A stretch of 64,000 bases of DNA from an uncultured Syntrophothermus sp. (GTDB lineage Bacteria > Bacillota > Syntrophomonadia > Syntrophomonadales > Syntrophothermaceae): NCBI GenBank assembly GCA_964405385.1, contig CAYONS010000002.1, positions 5,019-69,018 on the forward strand, read 5' to 3'. The first letter of the stretch is position 1; each line of letters opens with the position of its first letter. The notes under the pieces were generated by a model that saw only the letters and a list, made by a program, of their open reading frames with translations, was not told the origin of the DNA and searched no databases. Below, one piece after another: positions 5,160 through 46,918 of the stretch. The position numbers and the translations under genes were made by a program.

Positions 5160-6032
5160 TCAGTCTGCGGTAAGCAGCCGCTTTAAAGCCGAGGCAGTTT
5201 CATCATCAATCGTTCCCTTGGCCCGGGCCACGTCAACAGTGTGATAGCCCAGAACCCGGTACAGCCCCAGCCATTCCGGCACCATATCCTGCATGGAGTC
5301 CAGGTGGCGGGCCACCGTAGTCATGTCCCCCCGGGCGATCGGCCCGGTGAGAGCCATTGGTATCCCTATATTAACAATATTGTTAATTGTTCCCTCAATA
5401 AGAGGCAACAACGCTTTTTGCGCTGATTCCCGGGGTATTCCGGCCTTTTCCATCAGCCGGAGCCCGAAGTCCACCAGAGTGACCAAGTAGTTCGATACCA
5501 CGCAGGCGCTCGCGTGGTACAAAGGCTTGGCCTTCTTGTCGATAAAGAAAAACTCACCTCCCAGAGACCTGACTATCTGTCCCGCCAGATCAAAGCCCTC
5601 TTTGTCGCCCTCGATGCTGAATACCGATCCCGGCAGGTTCTCCAAGGCCCTTTGCACATTGGCAAACGACTGAACAGGGTGGATAGATAGAACCGTCGCC
5701 CCCTGCTCGCGAGCCGCCCACAACACGTCCGAACTGTGAGCTCCGCTCATGTGGACCACTACCTGCCCTTCTGTAAAACCTCCTTCCTTCGCTATTTCCC
5801 GTGCCACCTCTTCGATCGCCGAGTCTGAAGTGGTAATAAAAAGGATATCCGCCGAGCGTGAAACCTCCGCGGGGCAAGCCCTGACGCGGGCTTCTGTTTC
5901 TTCTGCCAAAATACGAGTAGACTCAGGACGCACGTCGTAAACCCCTGTAATCTCCCATCCCTGGCGATAAAGAATAACCCCCACCGCGGTTCCTACCACT
6001 CCCGCCCCTACAATACCGACCCTCTTTTTCAC
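5160..6032 (-). CDS. Rossmann-fold NAD(P)-binding DUF2520-type protein (possible ketopantoate reductase of the pan operon)
   Basis: 290 aa with GIVGAGVVG at the N-terminus. GTG start with a GAGGAGG SD. The reductase role is inferred only from its position directly upstream of panBCD. Confidence 0.7.
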   Translation of the reverse strand: MKKRVGIVGAGVVGTAVGVILYRQGWEITGVYDVRPESTRILAEETEARVRACPAEVSRSADILFITTSDSAIEEVAREIAKEGGFTEGQVVVHMSGAHSSDVLWAAREQGATVLSIHPVQSFANVQRALENLPGSVFSIEGDKEGFDLAGQIVRSLGGEFFFIDKKAKPLYHASACVVSNYLVTLVDFGLRLMEKAGIPRESAQKALLPLIEGTINNIVNIGIPMALTGPIARGDMTTVARHLDSMQDMVPEWLGLYRVLGYHTVDVARAKGTIDDETASALKRLLTAD

Positions 6033-14621: not shown

Positions 14622-14826
14622 TCCACAGATGCCCTCAGACCCGGATATTTTCTTTTAGACGCTGATTAACGCAGATTTTTTCTAAAATAGACTTTTTCCA
14701 GCATATTGACGGAGAAAGTCTTCGTTCTCCAGTGGCGACACCAAATGGTGTCGTAGGCGTCTGTGTAAATCAGTGTTAATCATTATCAATCAAGTATAAA
14801 TCTGTGTCAATCTGTGGTCTGTGGCC
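14622..14826. repeat. foldback repeat element, copy A (CCACAGAT ... ATCTGTGG termini, 10-bp TTAATC/TAAATC units, 52-bp conserved core 14662-14713)
   Basis: Left end is CCACAGATG. The right arm is GTGTAAATCAGTGTTAATCATTATCAATCAAGTATAAATCTGTGTCAATCTGTGG. The core is 49/52 identical to 28080-28131. Confidence 0.8.
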
Positions 14827-17367: not shown

Positions 17368-17513
17368 GCTTTATCAGGTACATTATACCGTTAAAGTCTG
17401 GCATTATTTGTCAATACCGGGCTTGCCACGTGATTTTTCATCAGTCACCGATAGACACCGTTCTTTACTAGACGCTTATTTACGCAGTTCTTTCACAGCG
17501 GCACAAGGGGACG

Positions 17514-17579
17514 CGCACAAGGGGACGGTTCCTCTGTGTCAACCCAAAGGTTGACACAGAGGAACCGTCCCCTTGTGCG
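17514..17579. repeat. perfect 31-bp-arm palindrome (4-nt loop), REP/foldback-like
   Basis: CGCACAAGGGGACGGTTCCTCTGTGTCAACC-CAAA-GGTTGACACAGAGGAACCGTCCCCTTGTGCG. It is preceded by a tandem partial copy, CACAAGGGGACG, at 17502-17513. Confidence 0.9.
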
Positions 17580-17591
17580 TCGTGGCCAGAA

Positions 17592-21490: not shown

Positions 21491-22393
21491 TTAGGCCCCG
21501 GCGCTCTTGGAGGTACTGGTCGGGACGGCAGGAGCCGATTTTTTCAGGTAGGAAAACCAGTACAGCGTTCCCACGAAGAACCCGCCACCCACGATGTTTC
21601 CTAATGTAACCGGCACAAGATTTTTCAGGAAGAAGTTCTTCCAGGTAAATAGCTCAGCCACTTTAGCCTTAAAAGCGTCCATAGCAGCTATAGCCTCTGG
21701 GGGCAGGCTGCCGCCCGCAGCCAGTAGAGCTGCCTGCTCCGGAGTCAGGACGGTTCTTGCCGCCACATCCACTACTGCCGGTATCTTGGCCACTTCGAGA
21801 CCCATAGGGATAAAGAACATATTGGCAACGCTGTGTTCAAAACCGCTGGCAACGAAGGCCATGATGGGGAAGAAGCAAGAGAATATCTTGCCGACCACGT
21901 CCTTGCTGCCCAGGGCCAGCCATACTGCCATACATACGAGCCAGTTACAGAGAATGGCCCGGCAGAAGGCCGCGCTCCAGGTCAGGCTGAGTTTGCCTTG
22001 AGCAATAGCCAATGACTTGGCTCCTACCGCACCCTTGAACATGCCGGCCGAAACGGTGCCATCAGGCTGAATTCCATAAAATCCACCCACTATAATGTAG
22101 ACCAGGAGCAGTGAGCCCACCAGATTGGCAACCCAGACTACCACCCAGTTATACAACAATTCTCCCCAGGTGCTTTTGCCCTCCAGGGCGGAAACCATCA
22201 GGAACATGTTGTTCCCGGTGAACAGTTCCGCCCCGCCGATAACCACCAACATCAGGCCGACAGTAAATACGGCTCCGAACATGAACTGGCCGAAACCGTT
22301 GCCTAGGTATTTGGGTATATCGTGACCGACCATGGTAGCCAGATTGGCTCCAAATCCGATATACACCCCTGCCAATATACCGAGCACGAACAT
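21491..22393 (-). CDS. fdhC: formate/nitrite transporter family channel (FdhC/FocA); intact ORF starts at an internal Met, and the N-terminal 27 codons are cut off by an in-frame TAA
   Basis: 300-aa ORF of the FNT family (AELFTGN, GFEHSVANMF). The same frame upstream reads MNFLAPPEIAATACSVG-TAA-AKGKLPIAK-M, with an SD and ATG at 22472-22474. Confidence 0.85.
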   Translation of the reverse strand: MFVLGILAGVYIGFGANLATMVGHDIPKYLGNGFGQFMFGAVFTVGLMLVVIGGAELFTGNNMFLMVSALEGKSTWGELLYNWVVVWVANLVGSLLLVYIIVGGFYGIQPDGTVSAGMFKGAVGAKSLAIAQGKLSLTWSAAFCRAILCNWLVCMAVWLALGSKDVVGKIFSCFFPIMAFVASGFEHSVANMFFIPMGLEVAKIPAVVDVAARTVLTPEQAALLAAGGSLPPEAIAAMDAFKAKVAELFTWKNFFLKNLVPVTLGNIVGGGFFVGTLYWFSYLKKSAPAVPTSTSKSAGA

Positions 22394-22730
22394 TTTGGCT
22401 ATAGGTAATTTCCCTTTGGCTTACCCTACGCTGCATGCAGTAGCTGCTATTTCGGGCGGTGCTAGAAAATTCATTTGCTATTCACTCTCCCCTGCTAAGA
22501 CATAAATTTTGGCACTAGCCGTTTGAACAAGTTTCTGAGACCAAAGGCCAAGGAGATTACCCGAATCACTCCCTGTACCTTTAGGCACAAACAACTGCCT
22601 AGTTCCTTATCTTGGCATCCCCCCTTTGCCGGTTCCGTACTTCAACACCCAAGATACTACCGGGCTCGAGCCTGCATCCGTCAATGCCTTAAGGCCCATG
22701 CCCGGCGTACCCTGATTACACGATCCGGTT

Positions 22731-25439
22731 CTAGATCTTATCCAGCCTGGCCGCGCATACCTTGTATTCGGGTATCTTAGCCACCGGATCGAGCGAATCC
22801 GCGTTCGTAAGCCAGTTGACCGCCGCTTCGGCAAAGTGGAAGGTCATGAACACTACGTTTGCCTCCAAGATATCAGTTATCTTGGCTTTGACTTCCACAC
22901 TCCCTCTGCGGGTTGACAGCCTCACCTTTTCCCCGTTCTCAATGCCCAGCCTGGCGGCCAAGGCCGGGTTGATCTCCACTTCAGCCTCAGGCACATGCTG
23001 ATGAAGAGCCGAAGATCGACGGGTCATTGTTCCGGTATGATAATGGAATAGGTTGCGGCCTGTAGTCAAAATCAACGGGTATTCTTCGTCTGTAACTTCC
23101 GCGGGTTCTTTGTATTCAATTGCAGAAAAAGCGCCTTTGCCCCGAGTGAACTTCCCGTCCTTGTGCAGGAAAGGAGTCCCAGGGTGATCCTCTGATGGGC
23201 AGGGCCATTGCAGGCCTTTACCTTCCAGGCGGGCATACGTCATCCCGGCGTAGGAAGGAGTAAGGCTGCGAATCTCTTCAAATATCTCTTCTGCTGAGCT
23301 GTAGTTCATCGGATACCCCATCTTCCCAGCCAGTTCACAGATTATCTGCCAGTCTACCTTGGCTTGCCCCGGGGGCTCTACGGCCTTGCGCACCCGTTGA
23401 ACCCTTCTCTCGGTGTTGGTGAATGTTCCTTCTTTTTCGGCAAAACAGGCTCCCGGCAGCACAACGTCGGCGTATCTCGCGGTGTCGGTCAGGAAGATAT
23501 CCTGCACCACCAGGAATTCCAGTTTTTCTAAAGCCTCTTTCACATGGTGCAGGTCCGGGTCGCTCATCATGGGATTCTCGCCGATGACAACCAGAGCCTT
23601 TATCTCTCCTGCGTAGGCTTTGTTGATGGTTTCCGTCAGGGTCAAACCAGGTTTTCCTGAGAGCGAAACACTCCACGCCTTTTCAAACTTCGCCCGCGCT
23701 TCGTCGTTCGCCACCTGCTGATAGCCGGTGAACACATTGGGTAGCCCGCCCATATCACAGGCTCCCTGTACATTGTTCTGGCCTCTCAGGGGGTCGACTC
23801 CAGTGCCCGGACGACCGATGTTGCCTGTGAGCATGGCCAAGTTGCACACCGATTTGACGTTATCCGTACCAGTGCTGTGTTGTGTCAGGCCCATGGCATA
23901 ACAAATGACCGCAGCCTCGGCTTCGGCATAGATACGGGCCGCCCGACGTATATCGGCAGCCGGTACTCCGGTAATGGTTTCTACGTATTCCGGTGTATAC
24001 TTCGCCACTACCTGGGCCATAGCTTCGTATCCTTCAGTATTGGCAGCTATAAACTCTTGATCGGCCAGCCCTTCGCTGATGATGACATTCATTATCCCGT
24101 TAAGGAGGGCCACGTCGGTTCCAGGTCTGTGTTGCAGGTAGACGTCCGCTATTTCGGCTAAGTCGATACGGCGCGGGTCCGCCACTATCAACTTAGCTCC
24201 GTTCTCCAGGACGTTCTTTTTAATCTTCATTCCTATGACCGGGTGATTTTCCGTAGTGTTGGATCCTATAACAAAAATGGCCTTGGCGTCCTCCTCCAGT
24301 TCATTAATGGAGTTGGTCATTGCTCCGCTTCCGAATGCTGTCCCCAGACCGGCGACAGTAACGGAGTGTCAGAGACGCGCACAGTGGTCCACGTTGTTGG
24401 TTCCAAGGACGGCCCGCGCAAATTTCTGGGCCAGGTAGTTTTCTTCATTGGTTATCCGGGCCGAGGTGAAAACCGCTATGGACTCGGGCCCGCTTGTTTG
24501 CTTGATCTCCTGTAAACGCGAGGCTACGAGTTCCAGGGCCTCATCCCAGGACGCTTCCCGGAATTGACCGTTTTCATTAATTAGCGGAGTGGTCAAGCGC
24601 TCAGGTGAATGGATGAAATCCCACCCGAACCGGCCTTTGACACACAGGGCTCCTTTATTGACCGGGCTCCAGTTAAGAGAGCGGTTAGAGGTTACCCCTA
24701 CTACCCGGTTGTCTTTTACGTTCAGTTCCAAAGTGCATCCGGTGCCGCAGTAGGTACAGGTGGTCAGTACCTTTTCTACCTGGTAGGGCCTGCCCTTTCC
24801 TGCACTTACCTTGCTGGTCAAAGCGCCTACGGGACACACCATAATGCACTGACCGCAGAAAACGCAGGGAGAATCAGCCAGGTTGCCGTCAAAAGCGGTC
24901 GCGATCTTGGCGTTGTGCCCGCGTTCAGCCACATTAATGGCCCGAGCCATAGTTATCCCTTCACAAGCCCGGACACAGCGAGTACACATGATGCATTTGT
25001 TGTAGTCTCTTTCAATGAACGGGTTGGGGTCATCGATGGGATACTGGGGCCTTCCCCCATCCCTAAACCTGGAATCGGATACTCCGTATTCGTAGCAATA
25101 ATCCTGCAATTTGCAATCCCCGTTCTTTTCACAGGTCAAGCAGTTGCCCCCGTGACGCGCCAGCAGTAATTCCAGAATCACTCTGCGGGCCTCTACTATA
25201 TCCGGGCTGTGGGTTTCAATCACCATGCCGTTTTCGGCCGGTGCCACGCAGGCCGCCAGAAACAAGGGCCGGCCCTTGGCCTCGACTATACACATCCGGC
25301 ACGAACCGGCCAGCCTAAGATCCGGATCGTAGCAAAGAGTCGGCAGCTCGATGCCGTTTAACCGGCATGCTTCCAGAATGGTACTGCCATCAGGCGCCTG
25401 CACTTCTTTGCCGTTTATAGTCAGTGTTACCATCTTCAT
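22731..25439 (-). CDS. fdhA: formate dehydrogenase catalytic subunit, selenocysteine-containing (Mo/W-bisPGD) with NuoG-like Fe-S N-terminus
   Basis: Two same-frame ORFs (24369..25439 and 22731..24320) join if TGA 24369-24371 is read as Sec: ...[28 protein letters not shown].... This is the classic FDH Sec context. Confidence 0.9.
24338..24358 (-). other. candidate bacterial SECIS hairpin
   Basis: Begins 11 nt 3' of the UGA. CUGUC(G)CC-GGUCUG-GGGACAG forms a 7-bp stem with one bulged G and a GGUCUG loop, resembling the E. coli fdhF SECIS apex. Confidence 0.6.
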
Positions 25440-25450
25440 CCTCCTTTCTC

Positions 25451-26671
25451 TTAGGATAGGAGCTTACGCTCGTACTCATGCCTGAAGTGCTGCAAAGTAG
25501 TCACAATCGGTGTGGGAGCTGCCTGGCCCAGCCCGCAGAGAGCTGCTCGCTGCATAACCCGGGCAAGTACCGTTATGTTGTCTATATCCTGAGCCCTCGC
25601 TGCTCCCCGGTTGATCTTCTTCATGATTTCATAGCACCTGAACGTACCTTCCCGACAGGGATTGCACTTACCGCATGATTCGTGTTCAAAGAACTTGGCT
25701 ATCCTGGTGACGACGTCGACAATATCCCGCGTTTCATTCATGACGAAGACGGCGCCGGTTCCTAGGGTGGCACCAATGGCACGCATGGAATCGAAATCGA
25801 TAGGAGTGTCCAGAAGAGATTCGGGAATGAATGCACCTGAGGTTCCGCCGATCTGTACGGCCTTCAGTTTACGCCCGTTCCTGATGCCTCCGCCAAATTC
25901 GTAGATGACCTCCCTGATAGTGGTATTAGTCGGCACCTCTATCGCCACCCGGTTTACTACATCCCCGGTCAGCGTCAGCACTTTGGTGCCGGGATAACTT
26001 GGAGCACCTATAGCGGCAAACCAGTCGGCACCCTTGTTAATTATTTCCGGCACGTTGGCAAAGGTCTCCACGTTGTTTACGACCGTGGGTTTACCCCATA
26101 ACCCGGCTACTCCAGGAAAAGGCGGTTTAAATCGGGGTTCCCCCCGGTGACCTTCGATGGATTCTATGAGAGCCGTTTCCTCTCCGCACACGTAAGCTCC
26201 CCCGCCCATGCGAACCTCGATGTCGAAATCTCCCAAAACACCTTTACTTTTGGCCTGGGCGATAGCCCGGTTAAGATGCTCGACCACGTACGGGTATTCC
26301 CCGCGGCAGTAGATGTAGCCCTTACGCGAACCTATGGCATGACCACATATAGCCATGCCTTCTAGTAACGTGTGCGGGTCTTTTTGAACTATGGTCCGGT
26401 CCTTATACGTCCCTGGTTCGCCTTCATCCAGATTACAGACTACATATTTTACGTCGGCAGGAGGAACGAAGCTCCACTTCAACCCCGCATTAAATCCGGC
26501 CCCGCCGCGGCCTCTAAGGTTGGCTCTTTTCACTTCTTCTATAACCGCCTTGGGATCCATGCTCCGGGCTTTTTCCAAGGCTGCGTAGCCCCCGGCCTTA
26601 ATATAATCGTCGATGTTGCCGGCATCTATCTTGTCGGCGTTTCGCAGTACGATACGCAGTTCTTCCGCCAT
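25451..26671 (-). CDS. NuoF-like NAD(H)-binding flavoprotein subunit of the formate dehydrogenase (short form, 406 aa)
   Basis: Close paralog of hydB (MAEELRIVLRN vs MAEELRVVLRN, collinear throughout). Contains the ESCGKCNPCREG motif. Confidence 0.9.
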   Translation of the reverse strand: MAEELRIVLRNADKIDAGNIDDYIKAGGYAALEKARSMDPKAVIEEVKRANLRGRGGAGFNAGLKWSFVPPADVKYVVCNLDEGEPGTYKDRTIVQKDPHTLLEGMAICGHAIGSRKGYIYCRGEYPYVVEHLNRAIAQAKSKGVLGDFDIEVRMGGGAYVCGEETALIESIEGHRGEPRFKPPFPGVAGLWGKPTVVNNVETFANVPEIINKGADWFAAIGAPSYPGTKVLTLTGDVVNRVAIEVPTNTTIREVIYEFGGGIRNGRKLKAVQIGGTSGAFIPESLLDTPIDFDSMRAIGATLGTGAVFVMNETRDIVDVVTRIAKFFEHESCGKCNPCREGTFRCYEIMKKINRGAARAQDIDNITVLARVMQRAALCGLGQAAPTPIVTTLQHFRHEYERKLLS

Positions 26672-26699
26672 TCATGCAAACCTCCTTTCCTCAGGGATA

Positions 26700-27146
26700 T
26701 CACTTACACAAAGCCAGTATCGCAGGAACCTCTTCCGGTGTAACCCCCGGGTACGGCACACCGTTAACCGTAATAACAGGTGTTTCTTGACACTGCCCTA
26801 CACATTCTGTCAGTTCCAGGGTGAATTTCCCGTCGGGCGTGGTTTGGCCCACCTTAATCCCTAGTTCCCGCTCAAACGCCTTGATAACCGCATCGGCCCC
26901 GGCTATGTGACAGGGAGCGCTTTCGCACATGCGGATGATGTATTTCCCCCTGGGCTCTACCGACAGGTACGAGTAAAAAGTGGCGACCCCGTAAGCCTGA
27001 GCCTCGGAAACCCGGAATGCCTTGGCCACTTCCTTCACCGCCTCGCGCGGTATGTAGTTGTACTCGCGTTGCAAAGCGTGATAGGCCTCGATGATGCCGC
27101 CTGGGACATCCTGGTACCGGGCGATGATGTCTTTGTAATTGGCCAT
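26700..27146 (-). CDS. NuoE-like [2Fe-2S] subunit of the formate dehydrogenase
   Basis: The start is trimmed to ATG 27144-27146 (MANYKDIIARYQ), which follows a GGGAGGGAGGTG SD. This gives 148 aa, paralogous to hydC. Confidence 0.88.
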   Translation of the reverse strand: MANYKDIIARYQDVPGGIIEAYHALQREYNYIPREAVKEVAKAFRVSEAQAYGVATFYSYLSVEPRGKYIIRMCESAPCHIAGADAVIKAFERELGIKVGQTTPDGKFTLELTECVGQCQETPVITVNGVPYPGVTPEEVPAILALCK

Positions 27147-27711
27147 ACGATTCACCTCCCTCCCCCTTGCGACTTCAGCCAACGTTGTGGTAACATCCTT
27201 GTAAGAACCGCACCCAAACTGTAGATTGTATACACGCCGCAATCAAAACATGTTAATCTTTCGACTCTCGTCGACTTCCTCCTTCCTCAGAAATCCCGGT
27301 GTAAAGGCCCGTAAGCGTAACCACATCCCATTCTTATACATTTACATTATACATTGTATCGCCGCCACGTTGCCCCAAGCTATGACTCAGCCGGACCTCT
27401 TCCTAGTCCTGTTCTTCTGCAGTCCCTTGCTGGCCCCAGATGCGTCTCGGCCATGGCAAGACACAAAACCGCAGCTCCAGGCTGGCGCTGAATACCGGTC
27501 TGACAGATATCTCAATGTCGGTTTGCTAACAACGGCTGCGATTTTGCATACACGATAACCATGGACTCCATGCTGCACATATGTTAAAATGTACACAAAG
27601 TTAAAATTCATGAACCCTGACGACGAGGATGCATCTGAGTCCAAGGGGCTTCGCCGACACAGATCCTGCTAACGAGGAGTTGTCTCTTAGTTAAAGGGGA
27701 GGTGGTTGATA

Positions 27712-27750
27712 GTGTGCGTTTTTAAGCCTGCTTGGAACGATTCCGGGTAG
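27712..27750 (+). other. candidate 12-codon leader ORF (VCVFKPAWNDSG) overlapping a terminator-like hairpin
   Basis: GTG start 9 nt after a strong GGGGAGGTGG SD. The stop TAG lies inside the 3' arm of hairpin 27724-27754. Confidence 0.3.
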
Positions 27751-27757
27751 GCTTTTT
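27724..27757 (+). terminator. terminator/attenuator-like hairpin in the leader of the TM1266-hydE-hydG genes
   Basis: AAGCCTGC ... GTAGGCTT forms 8 bp including one G-U pair. An inner GGAA/TTCC helix is present, and TTTTT AATTT follows. It lies 20 nt upstream of the 27777 start. Confidence 0.4.
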
Positions 27758-27776
27758 AATTTAGCAAAAAAGCAGG

Positions 27777-28034
27777 GTGAAGACGTTGGACAGCAAGAGG
27801 CTCGGAGTGGTAAGCATCATAGTCGAGAACCGGGAATCGGTCCCGGTCATGAACCGTATCTTAAGCGACTACGCGGATATCATCGTAGGCAGGATGGGGC
27901 TGCCCTACCGGGAACGAGAGGTATCGGTCATCGCCCTCATCGTGGACGGGTCAACCGACGAGATCGGGGCTATGACCGGGAAACTCGGGAAATTGAGAGG
28001 GGTCAAGGTCAAAAGCGCCCTGGCCAGCAAATAG
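27777..28034 (+). CDS. TM1266-family iron-only hydrogenase system regulator (ACT-like small protein)
   Basis: 85 aa. LGVVSIIVENRESVPVMNRILSDYADIIVGRMGLPYRE matches my recollection of this family. It is adjacent to hydE and hydG. The start (GTG 27777 or TTG 27786) is uncertain. Confidence 0.75.
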   Translation: MKTLDSKRLGVVSIIVENRESVPVMNRILSDYADIIVGRMGLPYREREVSVIALIVDGSTDEIGAMTGKLGKLRGVKVKSALASK

Positions 28035-28036
28035 TG

Positions 28037-28275
28037 CCACTGATTAACATAGATTGGACACAGATGTTATTTTTTGACCCTGATTAACGCAGATTTTTTC
28101 TAAAATAGATTTTTCCCAACATATTGACGGAAGATCAAAGTTTTCATCCTCTAGCGGTGATTAAAATCGGTGTTAATCAGTATTAATCAATTATAAATCT
28201 CCGTAAATCAGTATTAATCTGCGTAAATCTGCGTCAAATCGCCGTCAATAATTGTTAATCAGTGCTAATCTGTGG
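28037..28275. repeat. foldback repeat element, copy B (largest): inverted arrays of 10-bp GATTAAC / GTTAATC units around a 52-bp conserved core
   Basis: Left end is CCACTGATTAAC and right end is GTTAATCAGTGCTAATCTGTGG. The right arm holds ~11 consecutive TTAATC/TAAATC units at 10-11 bp spacing (28157-28275). Confidence 0.85.
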
Positions 28276-28299
28276 CAACCGGGAAGAAAGAGATGGCTT

Positions 28300-29355
28300 A
28301 TGAGTGACGTGGATAGGGTCATAGCCGAATACGAAAATACGGGTTCCTTGTCAAAGGCAGACGTGGAGTTCCTGCTCAGCTTGGAAGACGAAAAAGACCT
28401 GCAAAAGCTGTTTTCTCAGGCCAATGAGGTGAGAGAACGCAACGTGGGCGGCGAGGTCCACCTGCGCGGGATCATTGAGTTTTCAAACTACTGCTCCCGC
28501 GCCTGCCTGTACTGCGGTATCAGCCGTCACAACAGAGGGTTAGCCCGTTATCGCATGGATACCGAAGAGATTCTCGAGACGGCGGAACAAGCGGTTTCTA
28601 TGGGGTTTAGGACTATAGTCCTACAGTCGGGAGAAGATCCCTTCTTCACGACGTCGATCATAGCCGGACTGGTCTCGGAGATCAAGGCGATGGATGTGGC
28701 GGTCACATTGAGCGTGGGGGAAAGGAGCCGCGAAGATTACGCCGCCTGGAAAAAGGCAGGAGCCGACCGTTATCTCTTGAAGTTTGAAACATCAGACCCG
28801 GAGCTGTACCGGCGGCTGCGGCCCGGATGTTCCTTGGTTCAAAGACTGGAATGTTTGTATCAACTGAGGGATCTCGACTATGAGGTTGGTTCAGGCATCA
28901 TGGTCGGCCTTCCCGGCCAAACCCTGGCCAGCATAGCCGACGACATCTTTCTCATGAGAAAGTTAGGGCTTTCGATGGCCGGTATCGGTCCCTTTATCCC
29001 GCATCCGGCTACTCCGCTGGCCTCGTGCCCAGCCGGTACTGCGTCTTTGACCCTGAAGGTATTAGCCGTTACCAGACTATTGCTGCCATGGGCGAATCTT
29101 CCCTCTACCACGGCCCTGGGTTCAATTGATAAAGAAGGGCGGCGCGAAGGATTGTTGGCCGGGGCCAACGTCTTGATGTTGAACCTTACTCCCCTGAAGT
29201 ACCGCCGGTTATACGAGATCTATCCGGCCAAGGCGGAGGCTGAAGATGATCCCGCGTCTCTCAAAGCCGCGGCCGTGGAGCTTGTCACCCGGTTGGGCAG
29301 GCGCGTGTCGTCAGGGTACGGTGAAGGGAAGAAGGGGGTAAGAATTGAGAATTGA
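28300..29355 (+). CDS. hydE: [FeFe]-hydrogenase maturase HydE (radical SAM)
   Basis: Contains the CSRACLYC radical-SAM motif and is BioB/HydE-like. The start is trimmed to ATG 28300 (MSDVDRVIAEY), because the track TTG 28252 lies inside the repeat element. Confidence 0.88.
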   Translation: MSDVDRVIAEYENTGSLSKADVEFLLSLEDEKDLQKLFSQANEVRERNVGGEVHLRGIIEFSNYCSRACLYCGISRHNRGLARYRMDTEEILETAEQAVSMGFRTIVLQSGEDPFFTTSIIAGLVSEIKAMDVAVTLSVGERSREDYAAWKKAGADRYLLKFETSDPELYRRLRPGCSLVQRLECLYQLRDLDYEVGSGIMVGLPGQTLASIADDIFLMRKLGLSMAGIGPFIPHPATPLASCPAGTASLTLKVLAVTRLLLPWANLPSTTALGSIDKEGRREGLLAGANVLMLNLTPLKYRRLYEIYPAKAEAEDDPASLKAAAVELVTRLGRRVSSGYGEGKKGVRIEN

Positions 29356-29445
29356 GAATTGAGAATTAAGAATTACGAATTGAGAATTGAGAGTTAAGAA
29401 TTGAGATTTGGGGATTTGAGAGTAGAGGGTAAGAATCAGAAATTA
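29341..29445 (+). repeat. heptanucleotide tandem repeat (AGAATTG)n, ~10 good + ~5 degenerate units
   Basis: AGAATTG x3, AGAATTA x2, CGAATTG, AGAATTG, AGAGTTA, AGAATTG, AGATTTG, then decaying units. The hydE stop (29353-29355) lies in unit 2. Confidence 0.95.
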
Positions 29446-40917: not shown

Positions 40918-40943
40918 TTTTCATGGCCTCCACCAACCTCGGG

Positions 40944-41128
40944 CCACAACATTATCAGACGCAGACGCAGATTAACGCAGATTAGCGCAGATTAACCGGG
41001 CCACAGATTAACACAGATTGACACAGATGAGAAACTGATTAGCACTGATCATAAACCATAAACCTCACGGCACCTGGGCCTTACACCAGAGACTGAGAAT
41101 CCATTTAAAAATCAGTGTTCACCTGTGG
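40944..41128. repeat. foldback repeat element, copy C (tandem CAGATTAAC decamers)
   Basis: Left array is CAGACGCAGACGCAGATTAACGCAGATTAGCGCAGATTAACC..CCACAGATTAACACAGATTGACACAGATGAG. The right end is ATCAGTGTTCACCTGTGG in inverted orientation. Confidence 0.8.
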
Positions 41129-41135
41129 TTAAGAC

Positions 41136-41300
41136 TCAGTTGTACAACCACCGGTTACTCACAGGGAAAGACTCCGAACCGTGACCGATCTCCTCCAGGC
41201 AGTCGGCGCACAGCCCGCTTATCTGGGTACAGCCTTCTCCTTCGGCCTCCTCTTCAAGATAAACCTTGTCGCAACATTCGCATACGCGGTAGATCTTCAC
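41136..41300 (-). CDS. fin: anti-sigma-F factor Fin (YabK)-like small Cys-rich protein
   Basis: 54 codons, so not in the ORF track. VKIYRVCECCDKVYLEEEAEGEGCTQISGLCADCLEEIGHGSESFPVSNRWLYN has a CxCC...C..C pattern. It lies between pth and mfd, as fin does in Bacillus. Confidence 0.6.
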   Translation of the reverse strand: MKIYRVCECCDKVYLEEEAEGEGCTQISGLCADCLEEIGHGSESFPVSNRWLYN

Positions 41301-46713: not shown

Positions 46714-46801
46714 CGTTGTTTCTCCGTCAGTTTCTTCTGTCTACTGCTTCAATTATATTGTACCCAAAAAAAAACACCAGTCCATCGACCCCGTTCACGG
46801 G

Positions 46802-46887
46802 CAACAGATTTACACTGATTAACACAAATTAACACATCCCCTCGTGACGCCGGGAGGTATCATGAGGGGATATTGTGCATCTGTGGC
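46802..46887. repeat. foldback repeat element, mini copy D
   Basis: CAACAGATTTACACTGATTAACACAAATTAACAC is followed by hairpin CCCCTCGTGA/TCATGAGGGG, then GCATCTGTGGCC. Confidence 0.65.
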
Positions 46888-46918
46888 CGGCTTATTCCAA
46901 TAGAGCCGGAATCGAGTC

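Follow-up and report, generated by a model that had tools for sequence, protein, structure and literature searches.

The window, a stretch of 64,000 nucleotides whose sequence matches a Logan metagenome contig (SRR6318356), carries a gene for a TM1266-like, ACT-type regulator of [FeFe]-hydrogenase systems (27786..28034, + strand, 82 aa; Pfam PF21699, E=4.5e-33; gene call in L011) upstream of hydE, which encodes a radical SAM maturase (28300..29355, + strand). The spacer between the two genes is occupied by a non-coding element of 241 bp (28036-28276), referred to here as e28, with a GC content of 34% as against ~53% for the window. The element begins one base past the TAG stop codon of the regulator gene (28032-34) and its right edge lies 23 nt upstream of the hydE ATG (28300), leaving only the ribosome-binding site (28281-28292), which follows directly. 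No ORF was found within the 241 bp, and no intrinsic terminator was predicted inside them.

As the first-pass annotation had described, e28 is a foldback with terminal inverted repeats built from sub-repeats (all coordinates are for the + strand). Its ends read GCCACTGAT...ATCTGTGGC, and the termini at 28035-28055 and 28257-28277 are 21-nt inverted copies with 81% complementarity. The left arm contains five complementary units, as predicted, in two modules. The outer module GCCACTGATTAACATAGATTGGACACAGATG (28036..28066), which includes the terminus, has three CAYNGAT units and is the inverted partner of 28255-28276; its GCCACAGAT-type end is also found in L132, L133, L178, L184 and L191. It is separated by a T-run linker, TTATTTTTT (28067..28075), from the inner module GACCCTGATTAACGCAGAT (28076..28094), which is one mismatch away from an 18-mer, GACGCTGATTAACGCAGA. 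T-runs precede the modules throughout the wider class defined below. An AT-rich, asymmetric core (28095..28162; blastn and alignment) leads into the right arm (28163..28276), which holds 11 units of the consensus TWAATCWGYG, including an inner module TTAATCTGCGTAAATCTGCGTC (28214-28236) and an outer arm with the terminus ...CTAATCTGTGGC (28255-28276). The AATC of these units starts at 28165, 28175, 28185, 28196, 28206, 28216, 28226, 28237, 28247 (degenerate), 28257 and 28267, that is, in steps of 10, 10, 11, 10, 10, 10, 11, (10, 10) and 10 nt with a mean of 10.2 bp, in agreement with the ~11 units at 10-11 bp noticed at first. Several right-arm units are degenerate (TCAATAATTG, TTAATCAATT). 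Tandem Repeats Finder reported periods of 10, 20 and 31 in e28. Chains of four or more such phased units did not occur in 50 shuffles of the window. Both the phased units and the inverted termini are real and non-random. The two arms differ in length (~60 nt vs 113 nt), however, and the hairpin that they could form is imperfect.

The element belongs to a dispersed family of foldback repeats with arms made up of consecutive 10-bp units, and this copy contains no gene. A second full copy, e14 (14622..14822), lies between spoIIE and tilS, both on the - strand; a related copy with duplicated left-type arms, e40 (40942..41132), lies between orf54 (Fin-like) and mfd; and a short copy, e46 (46800..46890), downstream of spoIIR, has three units, a 32-nt GC-rich hairpin and a ATCTGTGGC end. 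These relatives had all been pointed out before and are confirmed here, but the fifth, downstream of the [FeFe]-hydrogenase gene (17424..17500), is only a decayed left-arm remnant. Within the window, the copies at 14622, 28036 and 40942 are the only places where the unit pattern forms clusters (5 vs 0.44 in shuffles). All five copies sit between co-directional genes, as proposed (spoIIE>tilS, [FeFe]-hydrogenase>spoIIE, regulator>hydE, orf54>mfd and spoIIR>ispE-like, a GHMP kinase gene). The left-to-right polarity of four copies is identical on the + strand, whatever the gene strand, which with n=4 is not significant; relative to transcription, e28 differs in orientation from e14, e40 and e46. 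The neighbourhoods of two copies hold further features. After the remnant, at 17501-17580, lies a long hairpin that is nearly perfect, CGCACAAGGGGACGGTTCCTCTGTGTCAACC-CAAA-GGTTGACACAGAGGAACCGTCCCCTTGTGCG, with a direct repeat GCACAAGGGGACGC in front of it. Next to e40, between pth and mfd, there is a conserved Cys-rich ORF of 54 aa (CxxC...CxxC; 41136-41300, - strand), which L286 and L287 have as well; from its position, we take it to resemble the Bacillus anti-sigma factor Fin/YabK.

The interiors of the copies are related in a mosaic manner. A 61-nt core with 92% identity in blastn and alignment is common to e28 (28071-28131) and e14 (14653-14713), which points to recent copying or gene conversion. 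No further homologues of this core were found, and in one scan of the genome-contig collection a 20-mer from it gave only 10 single matches in unrelated taxa; the core is therefore private to the source genome. The stretch 28140-28180 is a decayed copy of a hairpin module, ..CTCTAGYGGYGACACC-N4-GGTGTC.., of which there are instances in e14, L133a, L134, L169 and L286. The closing pair of this small central hairpin varies among C-G, T-A and T.G in the five copies, too few instances for a covariation test. A different, long hairpin module, CCGGCACTCAGC...GCTGAGTGCCGG, was observed in the centre of family elements in L286 (5016-5110) and L178 (~5330-5440).

The window comes from an uncultured lineage of spore-forming Bacillota. 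We compared the same spacers in related genomes, of which the nearest by HydE are only 83% and 75% identical. Both carry family members between the regulator gene and hydE, starting just past the stop codon, with one element of 345 bp in L132 and two in tandem in L133/L134; the right junction into the hydE ribosome-binding site is common to the window and L132. Where HydE identity is down to 63% and 60%, this spacer is either short or filled by a different, GGGGACGGTTC-type repeat. Thus, the comparison of related genomes that had been suggested shows the site occupied at 75-83% HydE identity and empty of the family at 60-63%. The GGGGACGGTTC-type repeat of 17501-17580 fills this spacer in L266 and L267 and represents a second, unrelated family. 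Elsewhere, the orf54>mfd spacer is occupied at identical junctions in the window, L286 and L287, the spacer downstream of spoIIR is occupied in the window and L286, and L134 has intact elements in the hydrogenase>spoIIE spacer where the window has the remnant. In total, all four spacers that could be compared hold elements in relatives with protein identities of 70-83%. Within a 17-kb block syntenic with L286, the orf54>mfd and post-spoIIR spacers are the only ones occupied in either genome. At shared sites the ends and junctions are kept, while the interiors differ in length, content and even orientation; the hairpin module ..CTCTAGTGGTGACACC-N4-GGTGTCGTGGGGGTCTGCGT, for example, runs in L133a and L286 in the opposite direction to that in e14 and e28. 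Since fourfold-degenerate sites in the flanking hydG and pth, used as a neutral benchmark, are only 43-54% identical, conservation of the arms exceeds the neutral expectation, while the centres undergo turnover. Among the relatives compared, the nearest at 83% HydE identity, we saw no pair of filled and empty sites between close strains.

The motif is not confined to these genomes. The inner 18-mer GACGCTGATTAACGCAGA (GAC(C/G)CTGATTAACGCAGA), which is exact in e14 (14657-14674) and L133a, matches at least 120 metagenome contigs with GC contents of 31-66%. Nearly all matches sit in a like context, with units 10 (or 9) nt apart, mostly intergenic and usually in foldbacks. The surrounding units occur in several dialects (ACGCWGATTA, ACACWGATTA, CCGCAGAT and CACAGAG), with T-runs between modules and inverted partners being common. 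Among the 120 loci listed, same-strand units are spaced by 10 nt in 302 cases, 9 nt in 94 and 20 nt in 38; switches from + to - arrays outnumber the reverse (88 vs 33); and only 20% of the units fall inside ORFs of at least 150 aa, as compared with a background ORF coverage of 80%. The strict phasing by one helical turn that e28 seemed to show does not hold for the class: steps of 9 nt are frequent and speak against selection for exact helical phasing. Firmicutes-like contigs, some of them from the metagenome of L133, show the canonical layout of the subfamily in the window, namely A-GCCACAGAT(NNCACWGAT)n, a T-run, GACGCTGATTAACGCAGA, a variable AT-rich centre, (ATCTGCGTNA)n and (ATCTGTGTNA)n-ATCTGTGGC-T, with several elements per few kb and some solo arms (L181). 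We therefore define a class of decamer-array foldbacks by three or more units C(A/G)C(N)GA(T/G) in 9-11-nt steps, intergenic, usually in + then - arms, with GCCAC.. or GACGC.. heads, and e28 falls within it. This class spans several bacterial phyla and is peculiar neither to the source genome nor to the hyd locus.

Among the ORFs of the 120 loci listed, the only recurrent neighbour is a protein of ~130 aa of the PF13366 (PDDEXK_3)/TIGR04256 'GxxExxY' family, whose gene lies directly beside or between the arrays in six loci; the contigs with the 18-mer include arms of such GxxExxY cassettes. For an unbiased test, we chose three GxxExxY proteins solely by similarity and by the size of the surrounding contig. 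Each of the three genes is wedged between housekeeping genes and co-oriented with them, and each has a 3-unit array upstream (GGACGCAGAT.AACGC.GAT..) and an inverted array downstream (..ATCTGCG...ATCTGCGTCC). No other phased runs occur in the respective 6.4-kb loci; in L273, the third upstream unit is partial, and a strict scan scores the downstream array only. The arms directly flank the GxxExxY gene in every chromosomal case examined. A GxxExxY gene on a viral contig (L256) is likewise bracketed by arrays, a complete mini-foldback lies beside one in Gemmatirosa kalamazoonensis (72% GC), and a Fusobacteriota plasmid has a weaker version of the arrangement; no arrays were found around nine more distant PF13366 homologues on viral (phage-borne) contigs. 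Neither a GxxExxY gene nor a transposase gene was found in the window or in ~70 kb of contigs from the closest relatives.

The GxxExxY/PF13366 family is very large, with more than 7,800 proteins at E<=1e-20 among 8,000 candidates scored, and is listed with unknown function in a survey (PMC3424549). Its AlphaFold model is poor (pLDDT 63), Foldseek returned only weak nuclease-fold matches and no sequence homologue was found in the PDB, so the structure work adds nothing beyond the nuclease-fold assignment by Pfam. Most contigs with close GxxExxY homologues are only 0.5-5 kb long, which suggests that the cassettes and their repeats break metagenome assemblies. We also noticed small ORFs between + and - arrays at L136 1117-1488, L202 858-1106 and L233 2906-3319 that look like HEPN, Phd-like antitoxin and PIN proteins, as judged from their sequences. 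The array arms may thus carry toxin-antitoxin-type cargo besides GxxExxY, in which case the arms may be generic and GxxExxY perhaps just a frequent cargo.

The family had not been recognised in the first-pass annotation, and it has no catalogued match in the sources that we searched. In Rfam, the window had no match at the gathering threshold, 27900-28400 had only chance-level scores (E>=0.47), and six related loci had nothing at E<=0.01. Searches of plasmid and phage records by blastn with e28 and the L208 mini-foldback gave no match, nor did the exact core and end patterns in viral contigs, where a generic phased WAATC pattern was far too unspecific. No published description of the family or of its link to GxxExxY/PF13366 was found in searches of open-access full text.

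Several known systems are similar in part. Like REP/BIME and REPIN-RAYT systems, the elements lie outside genes in multiple mosaic copies, with modules that alternate in orientation and with foldback doublets, and related species share intergenic sites with different internal composition, as in enterobacteria and Pseudomonas. In REPIN-RAYT systems the repeats flank the gene for their cognate nuclease, and in the present class they flank the GxxExxY genes of other bacteria. Unlike REPs, the units are tandem 9-10-nt motifs NNC(A/G)CNGAT rather than palindromes of 20-40 nt with a GTAG head; the flanked gene encodes a PD-(D/E)XK protein (PF13366) rather than a Y1 (IS200-like)/HUH protein as in RAYTs, and no such PF13366 gene was seen in the window; and the pairing of the arms is not conserved at variable positions. 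The elements also resemble bacterial MITEs (Correia, RUP, Nezha) in being small, non-coding, numerous and intergenic between co-directional genes, with terminal inverted repeats. In contrast to MITEs, their arms are unequal arrays of sub-repeats, their centres are highly variable, their sites appear conserved across 70-83% protein identity in the relatives compared instead of being polymorphic, and we found neither a target-site duplication nor an insertion sequence encoding a known transposase as a parent. The flanks of e28, L132, L133a, L178a-c, L184, L191, L270, L273 and L281 contain no consistent direct repeat. The early comparison with MITE/foldback or REP/BIME elements therefore stands as far as a small, non-coding, multi-copy foldback is concerned, but with no target-site duplication and no known transposase found, membership among MITEs is unproven.

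Other comparisons were less close. The 10-11-bp repeat arrays of plasmid iterons and ParR-type centromeres (R1 parC, pSK41 parC) would, like those here, place a protein on one face of the helix, but they are single loci beside rep or par genes, whereas the present elements are dispersed and chromosomal with inverted arms. The suggested iteron or centromere nature was not borne out, as there is no rep or par gene context, and an iteron or type II centromere was rejected given the housekeeping and sporulation neighbours and the five dispersed copies. Drosophila foldback (FB) elements have inverted arms of 10-, 20- and 31-bp tandem sub-repeats, and the periods of e28 are 10, 20 and 31; those elements come from a eukaryote and are kilobases long, which limits the comparison to an analogy. 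DnaA, IHF and CodY boxes were dismissed by eye. The 23S rRNA intervening sequences with S23p ORFs of Coxiella and Leptospira are likewise small selfish cassettes with inverted-repeat arms, tandem short units beside the arm, a small ORF as cargo and a position inside a host transcript; in Coxiella, tandem GACAGAT units accompany an inverted-repeat stem that is cut by RNase III (PMC4990558). These sequences differ in lying in rRNA helices (25 or 45), in their 7-nt unit period, in their four-helix-bundle cargo and in a demonstrated excision by RNase III. An intervening sequence was rejected for e28, which lies between protein-coding genes with no rRNA by Rfam.

What is conserved in the arms was examined by comparing the two arms of 18 elements in register with a permutation test. 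At motif positions, the arms match at 94% within an element and at 75% between elements, while at variable positions they match at 47% within an element as opposed to 41% between unrelated elements (p=0.11). With the motif agreement high and the variable positions near chance, it is the motif and its spacing that are conserved, not the base pair. This pattern is as expected for, and fits best, an array of putative protein-binding sites, which lends support to the protein-binding idea raised in the first-pass annotation.

Taken with the flanking of GxxExxY genes, this leads us to favour, with a probability of roughly 0.6, the reading of e28 as a non-autonomous, mosaic REPIN/BIME-like element whose arms are putative protein-binding arrays and for which GxxExxY is a candidate partner. 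The arms are arrays of ~10-bp units, which read NNC(A/G)C(N)GAT in the inward direction, in two nested module types, an outer GCCACAGAT-type and an inner GACGCTGAT-type, around a variable AT-rich centre. The units would serve as side-by-side binding sites for a motif-recognising protein that copies or maintains the element. The best candidate for this protein would be the ~130-aa GxxExxY PD-(D/E)XK nuclease; in other bacteria, its genes stand between these same arms, an arrangement that parallels the RAYT gene with its flanking REP/REPIN repeats. Since neither a target-site duplication nor a filled/empty pair was seen, we infer mobility rather than observe it. The conserved position could reflect a host function rather than the persistence of a selfish element. 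In the window, e28 would be a long-resident passenger of the regulator-hydE-hydG transcription unit with the hydE ribosome-binding site left intact, and whatever influence it has on hyd expression, for instance through RNase III cleavage of the imperfect stem, would be incidental.

An effect in the mRNA might also be the actual function. The arms could pair in the regulator-hydE-hydG transcript as a long imperfect hairpin, acting as an RNase III site or stability determinant that sets the ratio of regulator to maturase, by analogy with REP hairpins and the stems of 23S intervening sequences such as that of Coxiella. Because there is no room for a promoter between e28 and hydE, the element must be transcribed through, and with no terminator predicted an RNase III-type effect on the mRNA is possible. 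The predicted folds are more stable than those of shuffled sequences (z-scores of -2.7 for e28 and -5.4 for e14), and the varying closing pair of the central hairpin would agree with a paired structure. However, complementarity between the arms at variable positions does not exceed chance, the folding energy has no strand preference in seven elements, the elements occur in either orientation to transcription, solo arms exist and no Rfam family matches. Hence, of the long RNA hairpin proposed at first, the capacity to form remains, but neither a strand bias nor pairing-specific conservation was seen, and we think that an RNA-level function is unlikely.

There is a smaller chance that e28 is a dead relic, an old insertion that has been inherited and is decaying without present activity, partner or function, its shared positions being due to common descent. 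The degenerate right-arm units, the clearly decayed 17424 copy, the lack of a mobilising gene nearby and the hydE junction in common with L132 all agree with such a history. It is at odds with the motif, which is kept at ~78-94% in the arms as against 43-54% for the fourfold sites of hydG and pth, with the 61-nt core of two copies at 92% identity, and with the replacement, duplication and inversion of interiors at fixed sites, which speak for continuing turnover and not passive decay. A locus-specific cis-regulatory array for hydrogenase maturation, read by the TM1266-like protein or by a response regulator that recognises TTAACA-type (PhoP-type) direct repeats, appears very improbable. The placement is the same in the three closest lineages, and the 10-bp-spaced direct repeats resemble, in what we take by eye to be a TTAACA likeness, sites of the OmpR/PhoB family; but the family also occupies unrelated spacers (spoIIE-tilS, orf54-mfd and spoIIR-ispE) within a cross-phylum class, and it is absent from the regulator>hydE spacer at 63% and 60% HydE identity.

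The REPIN/BIME-like reading can be carried further, in a form that we hold only tentatively and consider doubtful as a whole. Decamer-array foldbacks and GxxExxY (PF13366/TIGR04256) might together form an undescribed cross-phylum partnership of repeat and nuclease, a counterpart of REPIN-RAYT driven by a PD-(D/E)XK protein and not a Y1 transposase, in which the nuclease would recognise the tandem 10-bp units and propagate or maintain foldbacks without a gene of their own, such as e28. The consistent bracketing of GxxExxY genes by phased decamer arrays offers a concrete DNA substrate for biochemistry and suggests that a REPIN-like lifestyle has arisen independently a second time. For annotation, the class explains many AT-rich 'long spacers' in operons, spurious small ORFs and probably assembly breaks. 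At the present locus, the regulator-hydE spacer need not be a regulatory site specific to the hydrogenase.

The surroundings of e28 contain a few additional features. Between the hydrogenase operon and the regulator gene, 21491-27242 carries genes for a formate/nitrite transporter, a molybdopterin (formate dehydrogenase-like) enzyme and NuoE/F-like proteins; in L133 and L134, a NuoE-like gene abuts the regulator gene directly. The regulator gene is preceded by a leader of ~540 nt (27243-27785) that ends in a terminator-like hairpin (27724-27763) followed by a T-run. The leader has no Rfam match and could be an attenuator or riboswitch candidate; a similar terminator-like hairpin precedes the regulator gene in L266. 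On the other side of hydE, ~10 tandem heptamers GAGAATT extend from its stop codon into the hydE-hydG spacer (29341-29410), and ~5 copies of GAGAATT are present at the equivalent place in the relative with 75% identity (L133, 4575-4612).
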